Source: Eledone cirrhosa (taxonomy: Eukaryota). From it: a stretch of 64,000 nt of DNA. Under the pieces are notes generated by a model. The model was not told where the DNA came from. It ran no database searches and worked only from the letters and a program-made list of their open reading frames with translations. Position 1 is the first letter of the stretch; every line of letters starts with the position of its first letter. Below, piece after piece: positions 41,306 to 52,127 of this stretch. A program made the translations under genes and the position numbers. The stretch spans positions 106,206,001 through 106,270,000 of the forward strand of contig OZ024744.1 of assembly GCA_964016885.1 (NCBI GenBank). Direction: 5' to 3'.

Positions 41306-42335
41306 ATAAATGATTTAAACTGAACTTTGATTCATGTAATCTCTATATAACTGCTCTGTAAAACAACTGATGTTATTACATTGAGCTATTTATCTTACTG
41401 GTAATAAGATAGTAATGAATTACTGTCTTCCACTATTTAGGGTTTAAAATATATATAACTATATAAGGTTTTATTATATACATAACCATAAATAGTATCC
41501 TTAATACATACACATATATATACAGACACACACATATATATGTATATAAATATATACATACACATACATATACACATACATACACACATATATCAACATA
41601 TCCATACATACACACACACAAATACACAAACACGCACACACACATGCATATATATATATATATACATACATACACACACTCATACATATATACACACGTA
41701 GATACACACACATACATACACACATATATACACGCATACATACGCATGCACAAATATAGATATATGTACACACACCTACATACGCACACACACAAATAAT
41801 TATAAGGAAAAATATAATAATAAAAATACCGTCACATAAGAATAAAAATTGTAAGAATTATTATAAAGTTGACAGCGATACATGCAACAGATAAATGTAC
41901 AAACACACGTGGTAAGCAATACACACAATTGCACATACACATACATACATAATAAATACATACACACACACATACACATACACATACATATACACATACA
42001 TACACATACACATATACATACACACATATATACATATATACATATATACATATATATATATACACATATATATATATACACATACATATACACAAACACA
42101 TACATACAAATACATACATACACATATGTATGTGTGTAAAACTCATTCTTAGATGTATTCATATGAACCTTGTTTAACTCTTAAATATATATATATATAT
42201 ATATGCAAAAGTTTTATTTAAGATTGTTGGGTTACAACGAGTAAATATTTTATAACTGATATAAAAGCACTCGACAGTTTCTGGAGTAGGTTTACGATAT
42301 TAAACAAATGGAAACTATATTTATAAAACCATATT

Positions 42336-42401
42336 TATTTCGTTATATATATTTCTGGGATATCATATTAAAAATATATTATGCCTTCCTCAGACAAAAT
42401 A
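42336..42401 (-). ncRNA. Type-I hammerhead ribozyme, family B
   Basis: TATTTTGT-CTGAGGA-stem II-GAAA-TATATA-TA^ACGAAATA. Confidence 0.75.
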
Positions 42402-43913
42402 CAATACATAAGCTGTTTTATAAATAATTAGTGACATACCTTTTGAGAATGCAACTTCCTTTTAAAAAAGTTGATTTGGTAGTGAAACTGTTATGATAGT
42501 TATATAGAAAGAAAACGAAGATGAGAAGAAGAAGGTGAAGAGATGTATGTAAATAAAAAAGAAGAAGATGAAGAGATGTATGCAAAGAGAAAAGAGATGT
42601 ATGTAAAGAAAAACAACGGAGCGAGATAGAGAGACAAGGATAGAGAGAAATACATTGATGGTGAAAAAACAAAACAAAAAAAACATAGTAGGCTGCATTT
42701 TGACAGATGATCATCGTATATGTGAGAGGTTAAGGGAAGGGATACAGTTAGATTAGTGTATAGGAGAAAAAGAAAGAAAGATGATATATTTAAAATATAT
42801 TAAAAATATATTATGTCTCATCCATTTGAATTATCAATTTTTATGAATTAGGCACTATAATGTAAATACCAGTATTCATGAATGAGACACATATCTATAA
42901 TGTGTAAAAAAAAAAAAATAAAATGTTGGTCCTGTTTGCTTTGACTCTGATTCTATGACCGATATGCGTGGCATACTATGTTCTCTTGCGTCCCTAGATA
43001 CTCTGTGGAGTGACGAAGATATTCTTGGCGTTTTTAATTTTAATATTGATCTCTATGCTTGATCGATGATTGTTTTAGATGTTAATGTATATCTTATATG
43101 TTTTGTGTCTATATATATGTATATATGTATGTAAATGTATGTAGGGTGGAATCTCTTCTAACGCATTGAAGTTTTTCTTTTCTGACACATTGAAGTTTTT
43201 CATGAAATATAAGAATCAGTGCAGCGTATCACCTAGGGTCACATGTGCGTCTTTATTTATCAACTTGAATTTGAGATAACCTTCTCTTTTCTCATTTTTC
43301 ACGAGAATGCATATATACTTATGTTTGAAGTTTTGTCTCAGATTTTGCTTATAGACCTAAGAATTTTTAAACTGAGCATGTGGTCATTTTTTTTTTTTTT
43401 TTTTTTTTTTTTACACATTATAGATATGTGTCTCATTCATGAATACTGGTATTTACATTATAGTGCCTAATTCATAAAAATTGATAATTCAAATGGATGA
43501 GACATAATATATTTTTAATATATTTTAAATATATCATCTTTCTTTCTTTTTCTCCTATACACTAATCTAACTGTATCCCTTCCCTTAACCTCTCACATAT
43601 ACGATGATCATCTGTCAAAATGCAGCCTACTATGTTTTTTTTTTTTTTTTTCACCATCAATGTATTTCTCTCTATCCTTGTCTCTCTATCTCGCTCCGTT
43701 GTTTTTCTTTACATACATCTCTTTTCTCTTTGCATACATCTCTTCATCTTCTTCTTTTTTATTTACATACATCTCTTCACCTTCTTCTTCTCATCTTCGT
43801 TTTCTTTCTATATAACTATCATAAAAGTTTCACTACCAAATCAACTTTTTTAAAAGGAAGTTGCATTCTCAAAAGGTATGTCACTAATTATTTATAAAAC
43901 AGCTTATGTATTG

Positions 43914-43979
43914 TATTTTGTCTGAGGAAGGCATAACTTATTTTTAATATGATATCCCAGAAATATATATAACGAAATA
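43914..43979 (+). ncRNA. Type-I hammerhead ribozyme, family B
   Basis: TATTTTGT-CTGAGGA-stem II-GAAA-TATATA-TA^ACGAAATA. Confidence 0.75.
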
Positions 43980-45222
43980 AATATGGTTTTATAAATATAG
44001 TTTCCATTTGTTTAATATCGTATACATACATATATATATATATACATACACACACATATATATACACACACACATACATACACACACACACACATATATA
44101 TATAAGAAAATACATAAATATTATATATATATAAAAATAAAAAGTTGGGAATACGACAAATAATAAATAAATAAATAATTAGAAAAGGGTATAAATGTTT
44201 ATAGCTGATTTAGAACAATCAACAATTCCTGGAGAAAATGATCAATGAAAATAAGCATTAAATCACTGTATATAATTATGCATATACATACACACATACA
44301 TATACATATATATATATATATATATATATATATATATATATATATATATATATATATATATATATATATATATATATATATATATATACACACACACACA
44401 CACACACACACAACTATACAAATACACACACATATACATACACATACATACATATACGTATATGTATACACATATAGGAAAAAGTATGACCCCACGGCAG
44501 AGCTCAAGCCGTTTCTGAGGCTATTATATATATATACACACAAAAACAAATATATAAAAATACACACACACACAAATAAACACACGCACACACACACACA
44601 TTATATATATATTTATATATACACACAAATACAATAAAATACAATTATATACATACATACATACATACATACATATACATACAGGTATATAAACATACAT
44701 ACACACATACATATCCATATATATATATATATATATATATATATATATATATATATATATATATATATATATATATATATATATATATACATATATATAT
44801 ATATATATATATACATATATACACATATGAGCAACACACACACAGAAATAAATATCTAAAAATAAAAAAGGTGGGTATGTGAAGGTTAAGGTAGAAAGTA
44901 GGGGGTAAAATAAGGAAAATAAATGACATAGGAAAAGGTTTAAATATAAGGGGAATTCACTTTCTGTACTCTTATATGCTTTTTCTCCCTTATTTTTAAA
45001 CCTTATATTTAAACCTTTTCCTATGTCATTTACTTTCCTTATTTTCCCCCCTACTTTCTACCTTACCCTTCACATACCCACCTTTTTTATTTTTAGATAT
45101 TTATTTCTGTGTGTGTGTGTGTTGCTCATATGTGTATATATGTATATATATATATATATATATATATATATATATATATATATATATATATATATATATA
45201 TATATATATATATATATATATA

Positions 45223-49474: not shown

Positions 49475-51082
49475 ATGATGGTTGCCCCCTCGTTATCGAG
49501 TATGGCCATTGCACGAGGAGAAATAAAAAAAAAAAAAAATAATAATAATAATAATAATAATAAATAAAAAAAAAAAAAAGAAATATATATATATATATAT
49601 ATACATATACATACACATATACACACACACACACACACACACACTCCCACACACATATACACACACACATACATTAATAACAATAATAATAATAATAATC
49701 ATAACAACAATAATAATAACGACAACAACAATAATAATATACATATACATATATTATACACACACACGCACACACATAAGCATATCTACACACACACACA
49801 CACACACACACACACACGATAGCAACTAACAGCGCTGCGATCGAATGTGGCTTTTTAGCCCAGCCAATGATCTAAAATGTCTTGCACAGAGTCGGCAACC
49901 AAAACATTTACTGGGAATAGTCGGCTGTGGTTGGAGTTCGTGTACTTTTGCATGTCGCTTGAGCCCTCCTGCTGATTTACATTCTCTACCACATGTTTGG
50001 CAAGCATGATGAGTAGCATCTCCAACAGCAGCCTGGTAGTCAACCACTGGTCTTACTTTATGACTGCGAAGATGACTTTCGAGTCCAGCTTTGCTTAGGC
50101 AGAGTCTCGCACAGACGCTGCATGTCAGCACCATAGGAGGACCCTCGCCGTCTGGAAGTGCAACAGCAATGCCCTTCCTCACATCCCGCTTTACTTTCTC
50201 GTATGCGATTCGAGATGCCTCAAAGGCAACTTTTCCCTCATATACAGTCTTTCTCCATTTATTACGATCAGCAGCAATATTTTCCCATGTATCAGCAGAG
50301 ATGTTAGCGTCTTTCAGAGAGGCTTTCAAGGAATCCTTATACCTCTTTTTTGGTTTATGTGGCGGTCGTTTTCCTTTAACCAACTCTCCATAAAAGAGTT
50401 GTTTTGGTATTCTAGAATCCTTCATCCTGGCAAGGTGACCACTTCAACGGAGTCATTGCTTAATACTGTCACACAGAGAGCTTTCCAAAATCTCGACATC
50501 ACTGATGTGGTCCTCCAGTGAACGCCATGGATCCGTCTGAGACACATCTGATGGAAATGCTCCAATTGCTTAAGGTGGTGTCGATATATGACCCAGGTCT
50601 CGCAGGCATAAAGAAGACAAGAGAGCACACATGCCCTGTACACCTTTACCTTTGTCCTCCTGCATATGTCTCGCCGACCCCAGAGTCGCCTTTCTAGCTT
50701 TCCGAAAGCATCACTTGCTTTCCTAATCCTAAGTGAGATTTCACTGTCAAGGTTGCTGTATCGATCGACAGTGCTTCCCAGGTAGACAAACTGATCAACC
50801 ACTCCAAGTCGTTTGCCATACACATAGATGTTTGGTTCAGTGTACTGCTTACCAGGGGCAGGTTGGTACATGACGACGGTTTTCTTGAGACTGACAGTCA
50901 ATCCTAGGGCAGTGCAAGCGTCAGAAAATGTATTCAAAATGTGCTGCATATCACTCTCTGTGTGCGCTACAAGATCGCAATCATCTGCATACAAGAGGTC
51001 TCTTATGATTGATGTAAATACTTTTGTCTTCGCAGCAAAGCGCCTGATGTTAAATATGCTGCCTGAGGTTCGATATCGGATG
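49475..51082 (-). mobile_element. 5'-truncated RTE/BovB-like LINE with three C-terminal C2H2 fingers
   Basis: [36 protein letters not shown]; frameshifted near 50.45 kb. Confidence 0.92.
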
Positions 51083-51685
51083 TAATTCTTTTATGTTTAC
51101 TGCCTCTGTAATTGACTTAGACAAATTACAGAGGCAGTAAACATAAAAGAATTACAACCAAAATTAAATAGAAAATATGAGTGGAACAGCAACATCACAA
51201 CTTACAATTAAGGACAAAATGAAAACACACACACACATAGAACAAACAACCAACCAACAACATGTAAATAAATAAACAAATAGATAAATGAACACAAACA
51301 CACACAGACACCCGGATGTGGCGCATGCGCAAACTGAGCACCAACGCACACACAGAAACAAAATGGCGTAGGACAGAAGAAAGGAAAGGCACAGAAACAA
51401 AGAAAGGAATCCCCAGTCACTGAAGAGGTCACAGAGTGTGTGACGAAAGGACTATGACTATATATAAACAACTATCTGGTTGTGGAACCAACCAACCAAC
51501 CAACCAGAAATTTATAAATTTGTAGATTTGTAAATTTATAAATTTATAAATATATAATAAATTGAAGTGAAAGCAACTGGTGCGTGTGTTTCTTATTGGC
51601 AACATGACCCTCCCAAAGTATAACAATATCGGTTTCAACACACGATTTCAGATAAAGAATCTTGCTAAACAAATTCAGAAACGAA
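51081..51685 (+). mobile_element. Family C element with a short 5' foldback (51081-51156); hammerhead-like motif at 51415-51459
   Basis: AGTCA-CTGAAGA-G-GTCACA..TGTGAC-GAAA-GGAC-TA^TGACT; ends at (TA)n. Confidence 0.78.
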
Positions 51686-51698
51686 ATATATATATATA

Positions 51699-52127
51699 TG
51701 CAAAAGTTTTATTTAAAATGTTGGGTTACAACGAGTAAATATTTTATAACTGATATAAAAGCACTCAACAGATTTTGGAGTATTTTACGATATTAAACAA
51801 ATGGAAATTACATTTATAAAACCATATTTATTTCATTATATATATTTCAGGGATATCATATTAAAAATATGGTATGCCCTCTTCAGATAAAATACAATAT
51901 ATAGACAGCTTTATAAATAAATTTGACATACCTTAGAGTTCACAACTTCCATTTAAAAAGTTGATGGAAGTTGTGAACTCTAAGGTATGTCAAATTTATT
52001 TATAAAGCTGTCTATATATTGTATTTTATCTGAAGAGGGCATACCATATTTTTAATATATCCCTGAAATATATATAATGAAATAAATATGGTTTTATAAA
52101 TGTAATTTCCATTTGTTTAATATCGTA
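51699..52127. mobile_element. Family B foldback; hammerheads at 51829-51894 (-) and 52022-52084 (+)
   Basis: About 165-bp arms; CTGAAGA core; tail on left arm. Confidence 0.88.

Follow-up and report, generated by a model that had tools for sequence, protein, structure and literature searches.

We analyzed a 64,000-nucleotide (nt) stretch of the Eledone cirrhosa genome (assembly GCA_964016885.1, contig OZ024744.1, positions 106,206,001 to 106,270,000 of the forward strand; hereafter the window, in whose coordinates all positions are given), which holds a nest of foldback insertions from 5 repeat families (A, B, D, E, and an outer family). They are probably Penelope-like element (PLE) ends, inserted in truncated or non-autonomous form, in which one arm stops at a fixed break, whereas the other continues into a tail with a conserved stem motif, RCTC..GAGY-RC, near its start. 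To account for this geometry, we favor, with about an even chance of being right, an integration in which both nicked strands of the (TA)n target prime reverse transcription at different sites of the RNA and the resulting complementary DNAs (cDNAs) join head-to-head. The conserved stem behind the break and a near-fixed inner end of the arms are features beyond those recorded in the initial annotation of this DNA.

The end motifs of family B are strongly overrepresented in the window: AATATCGTA matches 9 times versus 0.50 expected (none of 100 shuffles reached 9) and AACTTTTGCA 5 times versus 0.19 expected. Four foldbacks, B1 to B4, are built from 8 of the 9 and 4 of the 5 matches, respectively, and the remainder belong to a fifth, solo tailed copy, B5. 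The family B features are the following.

42204..42292, minus strand: B1 tail, 89 nt, to AACTTTTGCA-(TA)n
42293..42923, minus strand: B1 tailed arm, hammerhead core starting at 42393, inner end in an A-tract
42924..43394, no strand: B1 spacer, 471 nt, no recognizable open reading frame (ORF) remnant
43395..44022, plus strand: B1 tail-less arm, hammerhead core at 43922, ending at AATATCGTA
45694..45870, minus strand: B2 tail-less arm, 177 nt; the centre is a perfect palindrome without spacer
45871..46135, plus strand: B2 tailed arm and tail, with a substitution in the tail stem
46442..46617, minus strand: B3 tail-less arm, 176 nt
46618..48186, no strand: B3 spacer, 1569 nt; from 47700 on it lies under variant reads, continuous with the tailed arm
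48187..48362, plus strand: B3 tailed arm, resembling a pseudo-long terminal repeat (pLTR), 176 nt
48256..48320, plus strand: B3 predicted type I hammerhead fold, predicted cut after ~48312
48363..48452, plus strand: B3 tail, 90 nt
48367..48388, plus strand: B3 tail stem TACTC..GAGTG, 3–5 nt past the break; weak predicted hairpin, −2.3 kcal/mol
51699..51963, minus strand: B4 tail and tailed arm, with an 11-nt spacer that, by comparison with B1, is oriented with the tailed arm
51964..52127, plus strand: B4 tail-less arm, 164 nt
58435..58700, plus strand: B5 solo tailed copy without inverted arm; likeness to the other copies fades 176–190 nt upstream of the break

All 4 short arms pass from AATATCGTA directly into a TA-type run, whereas the tailed arms extend 86–89 nt past the last shared base, so that motif counts and arm alignment together confirm the asymmetry described for these insertions in the initial annotation. 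That description also had both arm and spacer lengths varying widely, which is correct for the spacers (471, 0, 1569, and 11 nt in B1 to B4, i.e., 0–1.6 kb) and not for the arms (631/628, 177/177, 176/176, and 167/164 nt): 3 of the 4 short arms measure 164–177 nt, and the inner end is therefore also nonrandom. In B2, B4, the short arm of B3, and, approximately, B5, the arms end or join at 164–178 nt upstream of the break, and the position at ~176 nt (48187 and its equivalents) is a possible RNA 5′ end.

The break itself is resolved to ~5 nt, because the tail can start with TAT. Arm and tail contain 39 TA dinucleotides, and 4 independent picks of the same one would be expected by chance with a probability of ~2e-5. 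TA-type runs adjoin all 9 B ends; since the copies were inserted inside (TA)n, a target duplication is unreadable there. Sister arms differ at 1–3 of 166 alignment columns, compared to 19–36 for arms of different insertions; the arms group by insertion rather than by side, and all 4 centres differ. Thus, to judge from these alignments, each B palindrome was probably built anew, separately at each insertion.

All 9 B arms contain CTGANGA..GAAA with 3 helices, a predicted type I hammerhead ribozyme fold for which self-cleavage is likewise a prediction. In the B-arm alignment, 96.4% of cells pair, with two-sided changes in 2 of 19 pairs, versus 37%–60% in slid controls; because the structure was drawn by hand from these same sequences and sister arms are not independent, the figures are support rather than proof. 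The same fold is found in the A, E, and outer arms, and D keeps its 3′ half only. Since the hammerhead strand points toward the tail, the arms are head-to-head, as had been annotated. Hammerheads have been described in pLTRs (PMC4209133), and the arms, carrying the type I fold, therefore resemble the pLTRs of PLEs. No Rfam hammerhead is among the best 150 of 159 matches for the window, where those listed are just microsatellite-driven microRNAs and 2 weak tRNA matches. Comparison with File S2 of PMC8557442 did not bear out an interpretation of E and the outer family as hammerheads lacking stem II.

Further features of PLE-type ends are present: the hammerhead lies on the strand reading to the 3′ end, an inverted 5′-truncated copy accompanies it, the tail is one-sided, and the target is (TA)n. 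Counting against a PLE origin, the 6 frames of the window contain no PLE reverse transcriptase (RT) or endonuclease (EN) motif, and the B spacers have no long ORF; we therefore call the insertions PLE-type ends, truncated or non-autonomous. The window copies were not classed as autonomous EN-containing (EN+) PLEs, there being no ORF with a telomerase-like RT and a GIY-YIG endonuclease. RVT_1 was matched by 3 of the 4 RT-like ORFs scanned, one of which also has an apurinic/apyrimidinic (AP) endonuclease, and none of them lies inside a foldback.

The same organization recurs in the other families of the window, with tails of 64–90 nt across families.

8897..9273: A1 foldback, left-hand tail of 90 nt, spacer of 12 nt, both arms with a hammerhead core
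37226..37583: A2 foldback, no spacer; the short arm carries ~60 nt of tail and adjoins another repeat, not TA
49150..49432: A3 foldback; the tail-less arm, with hammerhead, far exceeds the 27 nt that match in the tailed arm
6797..7010: D1 foldback, 79-nt tail on the right; only the stem III/I half of the hammerhead, core lost at the centre
45225..45355: D2, a tail piece joined straight to an opposite-strand tail-less arm
45385..45525: D3 foldback, tail shortened to ~40 nt; nearly a copy of D4, inverted
46160..46338: D4 foldback, with the full tail at its left end
9483..9666: E foldback, left-hand tail of 72 nt; the 14-nt spacer comprises stem I and the core of the hammerhead and is oriented with the tail-less arm
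40963..42200, minus strand: outer palindrome, left arm, tail-less, inner end in (TA)n
52151..53168, plus strand: outer palindrome, right arm, with hammerhead core at 53019, tail stem at 53108, and 64-nt tail
44313..49153, no strand: inner mirror pieces 44313–44620/48861–49153 and 44602–44730/45529–45657, and core 44811–45145

One tailed and one tail-less arm are paired in 12 of the 13 foldbacks, and none of the 13 has 2 full tails or no tail at all; D2 to D4 are probably related copies, and the number of independent events is therefore ~10. The extension of the rule to A (8897), D (6797), E (9483), and the outer repeat, already proposed in the initial annotation, stands, except for A2. A1 and A3 reach the same inner point, whereas D3 and D4 have a common centre and internal deletion (95.7% alike over 140 nt). 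The tail-less arm starts at the 5′ edge of hammerhead stem I in A2 (37394) and E (9604), and ~70 nt further upstream in B. The outer arms (40963–42200 and 52151–53104), the 2 inner mirror pairs, and the core are 84%–95% alike and probably represent one palindrome, with arms of ~2 kb that take in microsatellites and an older D fragment; we infer the joining of the pieces, because 44023–44312 has no mirror. The (TA)n runs of this large palindrome probably later took in B1–B4, D2–D4, A3, and pieces of long interspersed nuclear elements (LINEs).

Outside their motifs, the 5 families following the foldback rule do not align, and the stem at the start of the tail is common to them. The pattern RCTC-N9-18-GAGY-RC matches 18 times in the window versus 2.1 expected from Markov shuffles (maximum 9); 13 of the 18 matches occupy the tail position in the 5 families, and the other 5 lie elsewhere. 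In the 9 copies measured, representing all 5 families, the motif begins 3–10 nt past the break, with an internal spacing of 11–17 nt. In the outer family, both sides of the pair change together, with GCTC/GAGC in place of the ACTC/GAGT of the other families. When whole tails are folded freely, the stem forms in some copies only.

With the stem pattern alone as query, 10 metagenomic loci were fetched, 7 of which were treated as chance matches, having no hammerhead core or foldback at the match. At the remaining places, L005 and L006/L007, there are a hammerhead-like arm and an inverted arm that stops within ~4 nt of the stem. Over ~410 nt, L006 and L007 show no difference, and they were counted as one place. 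The tails of L005 and L006/L007 align for ~75–80 nt, their centres differ, and neither locus lies in (TA)n. Receptor-like ORFs in L005 suggest that it is animal DNA; between 2 of them lies a second, unrelated inverted repeat (1226–1414) with 86-nt arms.

The recurrence of the break was assessed by comparing 4 sequencing runs with 47700–48458 at 80% likeness. In X11 and X12, which are restriction site-associated DNA sequencing (RAD-seq) runs of one study, with most reads beginning near 48273 and duplicates possible, a loose end with an (AT)n consensus behind 48365 comprises 5,699 and 6,544 reads, respectively, or ~23% of the depth just upstream. Summed depth across 48365 falls from 25,162 to 15,065 in X11 (40%) and from 27,949 to 14,306 in X12 (49%), and no exits between 48366 and 48406 are among the loose ends listed (6 per raw-read run). 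The same (AT)n exit was found in 61 X1 contigs and in 1 contig of X5, which bears another organism label. The recurrence of the exit across many copies in other samples supports a fixed position of the break, rather than the random endpoints raised as a possibility with the initial annotation. The companion concern, that the palindromes arose through long-read artefacts, is answered by the differences between sister arms and by a 391-nt Logan contig from X1, which spans another copy on both strands (48234–48365 minus, then 48239–48398 plus). Its inverted arm stops at 48365, and its centre, calculated from the unaligned middle, lies near 48186, ~176 nt from the break. A 23-nt B break pattern retrieved 0 loci from metagenome and genome contigs.

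If both target strands act as primers, the endonuclease would nick each of them; one 3′ end would prime at a distal site, the end of the tail, and the other at a proximal site, 3–10 nt upstream of the conserved tail stem-loop, which would position the enzyme. The terminal TA would pair with the target, the 2 cDNAs would proceed toward the RNA 5′ end, and short complementarity would join them head-to-head. One RNA would serve both primers, with the distal site already occupied by the first, yielding one tailed and one tail-less arm. What was observed is the geometry, together with the fixed position of the break, the hammerhead, and the stem common to the families; the enzymatic steps and the partner protein are inferred. 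We count in favor of this scheme the fixed (AT)n exit, the per-insertion palindromes, and the stem motif at the break, along with the centres of B2 and A2, which have no spacer, and the short arm of B3, which like that of B2 stops 176 nt from the break, though its partner continues. Furthermore, the tail-less arm has sequence absent from its tailed partner in E (14 nt), A3 (139 nt between matching parts), and D2, an outcome that copying from this partner would not give.

Besides the missing PLE frame, several observations weigh against this interpretation. Sequence can be lost from the centre of a palindrome once it has been inserted, and E, A3, and D2 could be explained in this way. The B1 join in an A/T tract, the 11-nt loop of B4, which is owned by the tailed arm and closed by a 2-nt match, and the ~2-kb outer arms, which meet within 49 nt, are no less compatible with fold-back synthesis. 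The tail stem is weak (predicted −1.4 to −6.7 kcal/mol), mismatched in A2 and D3, and off-pattern in B2 and D4, and A2 breaks the pairing rule. The RAD-seq reads mostly stop short of the inner junction and never reach the tail end, and thus cover only the proximal break. Finally, the Poseidon element of Anolis carolinensis (PAc) shows no difference in start site between strands, and strict pairing of one arm of each kind is therefore not predicted from it (PMC11167929).

Somewhat less probably, a cDNA primed at the tail end instead folds back and primes its own second strand, which is then cut or halted at a fixed position just before the tail stem; the stem would serve as the signal for an endonuclease or as a protein stop signal. 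One tailed and one tail-less arm would then follow automatically, as in the 12 regular foldbacks, and near-equal arms (B2, B4, A1, A2, and the outer repeat), the ownership of the B4 loop, and the homopolymer join in B1 would be expected. Published precedents are an EN-mediated resolution proposed for PLE inverted repeats (PMC8557442), the requirement of the Drosophila virilis EN for the tail in cutting, as recounted in PMC11167929, and junction palindromes taken as self-priming on an antisense template (PMC3846280). However, folding back requires later deletions in E, A3, and D2, has no snap-back loop to offer at the spacer-free centres of B2 and A2, and in B3 requires a 1.57-kb loop landing on the same 176-nt point as in B2. 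The 11–17 nt spacing inside the stem also varies in a way that favors a hairpin over a double-stranded cut site.

It is improbable that a few master copies already possessing an inverted tail-less arm were transcribed whole and joined the target via the flanking (TA)n, the break having been made once. The common centre and deletion of D3 and D4 and the shared inner point of A1 and A3 fit such inheritance, whereas the grouping of B arms by insertion, with 4 different centres, does not, unless homogenization of arms after insertion mimics it. The rule also holds in 5 families that are not alignable outside the motifs, and L005 and L006 have the same break with different centres outside (TA)n. 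Very improbable are DNA transposons with asymmetric terminal inverted repeats and no RNA step (foldback, Helitron2/HINE-like, or DIRS-like): one-sided extension of inverted repeats and a 3′ hairpin resemble those classes, while the hammerhead fold with compensatory changes, the variable inner ends, the solo tailed copies, and the like 3′ ends in published RT-GIY-YIG Hydra-clade consensus sequences (PMC8557442) do not suit them. A long-read fold-back or assembly artefact is hardly credible: palindromes beside (TA)n are a known assembly hazard and the read evidence is from other samples rather than the window's own reads, yet substitutions and indels distinguish sister arms, the junction recurs in short reads, and both arms of another copy lie within a single Logan contig.

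The window contains several other repeats. Another hammerhead repeat lies at 36715–37058, 51325–51685, and near 24452 (cores at 36807, 51420, and 24452); the first 2 copies end in (TA)n and have neither an inverted arm nor the RCTC..GAGY stem, and a 36-bp foldback (51078–51159) lies upstream of the second. A TA-flanked element at 15084–15425 has a minus-strand hammerhead core (15231) and a 42-nt direct repeat at both ends. An older inverted repeat (16057–16282; ~80% over 92 nt per arm) is flanked by TA-rich sequence and yielded neither a hammerhead core nor a tail stem, and a 148-nt direct repeat (40018–40165 and 40763–40910; 98%) encloses a 600-nt unique stretch, with TA runs at the bounds. 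On the minus strand, 16936–20409 is an open 1157-amino-acid frame with AP endonuclease, RT, and PHD finger, apparently an intact LINE ORF, to which fragments at 28–1684, 11600–11912, and 60173–60300 are related. A 362-amino-acid minus-strand frame (29139–30227) has no Pfam match and resembles the end of CRE-type retroelements that holds the zinc knuckle and restriction-like endonuclease. The minus-strand frame at 27186–27590 is like a host exon encoding a helical-repeat-like protein; the nest may therefore lie in an intron.

Among the known systems closest to the foldbacks are EN+ PLE insertions, which carry an inverted 5′-truncated copy and a one-sided tail (PMC3846280, PMC8557442); the inverted tail-less copy is textbook for PLEs (see also PMC8969392), bearing out the initial annotation on this point. 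Common to both are the head-to-head inverted pLTR, the tail at one end, the palindromic inverted junction, AT-rich or (TA)n targets, and capture of host sequence. In contrast, the copies here have no upstream direct pLTR and no ORF, and their tails are longer than the 30–40 nt given in PMC3846280 and PMC8557442, a norm that in the latter is descriptive rather than a strict criterion. The passages on EN+ PLEs in these 2 papers do not name a conserved stem behind the break.

For PAc, the purified protein cuts and extends both strands and starts at 2 internal sites bracketing the tail, which speaks for the scheme with 2 primers; a dimer is predicted, and later integration steps were not validated in that work (PMC11167929). 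The window shares with PAc 2 fixed ends around the tail, downstream of the hammerhead, stem-loop-linked initiation, and an AT-rich target. However, PAc starts inside an AC-rich stem-loop, whereas the break here is just upstream of the RCTC..GAGY stem, and the absence of strand preference in vitro contrasts with the one-of-each pairing here. The initial annotation took the fixed break as the record of a second, precisely positioned priming or cleavage step. The PLE-type ends and the fixed position (hammerhead, reads at 48365) sustain the positioned step, and priming and cleavage are not fully separable in the window; as the inverted tail-less arm is published and 2 RT start sites have been shown in vitro (PMC11167929), this idea was largely known.

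In L1 twin priming, the second target strand primes internally and yields an inverted 5′ piece; second-strand internal priming is thus alike, whereas the L1 pieces do not overlap and their internal site is not fixed, unlike the fully overlapping arms and fixed site seen here. Metazoan non-LTR (long terminal repeat) retrozymes, proposed to be PLE-derived, are also short and noncoding with type I hammerheads (bioRxiv 10.64898/2026.07.22.740005). They are, however, head-to-tail tandem units, an arrangement of which a masked self-comparison of the window revealed none for these families, rather than head-to-head with a one-sided tail.

Hydra-clade PLEs likewise insert into (TA)n and have canonical type I hammerheads of similar design, features shared with other PLE clades and hence insufficient for assignment (PMC8557442). 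Among the 6 consensus sequences of File S7 of that paper, inspected by eye, Hydra-2_Amil and Hydra-2_Ajap have the same stem motif after a TA-rich site, Hydra-1_Crog has a variant stem, and the other 3 stop before the stem, like the tail-less arms. The clade is defined by protein features (RWK and DKT motifs, a CxCX5C linker, and a C-terminal EN without CCHH), whereas the window holds no PLE ORF. Eight short window motifs were not found in the parts of the PMC8557442 supplement searched, where FASTA line breaks could hide a match; we therefore claim no family identity with Hydra-clade elements. No description of the tail stem, the long tail, or the strict one-of-each pairing was found in the literature searched, which included PMC13282606 and the retrozyme preprint and did not extend to older subscription Penelope papers.

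The structure is real and of a known kind, with the inverted tail-less arm and the two-site idea already published, whereas the stem is a new, testable cis-signal. Tentatively, and with more doubt than assurance, we suggest that Hydra-type PLEs have a clade-wide RNA stem-loop, RCTC..GAGY-RC, which sets the template boundary of the second primer, so that one RNA is used twice, distal then proximal, and the palindrome is necessarily one-tailed. The origin of PLE tandem and inverted repeats is named as an open question in PMC8557442; if the suggestion is true, the stem-loop would be a defined signal, acting in cis, for the step of PLE integration that produces inverted repeats. The stem is conserved between families and hosts, with a constant spacing from the second end; it can be mutated in the in vitro assay, and in repeat libraries it is a simple marker by which to find and trim these elements.

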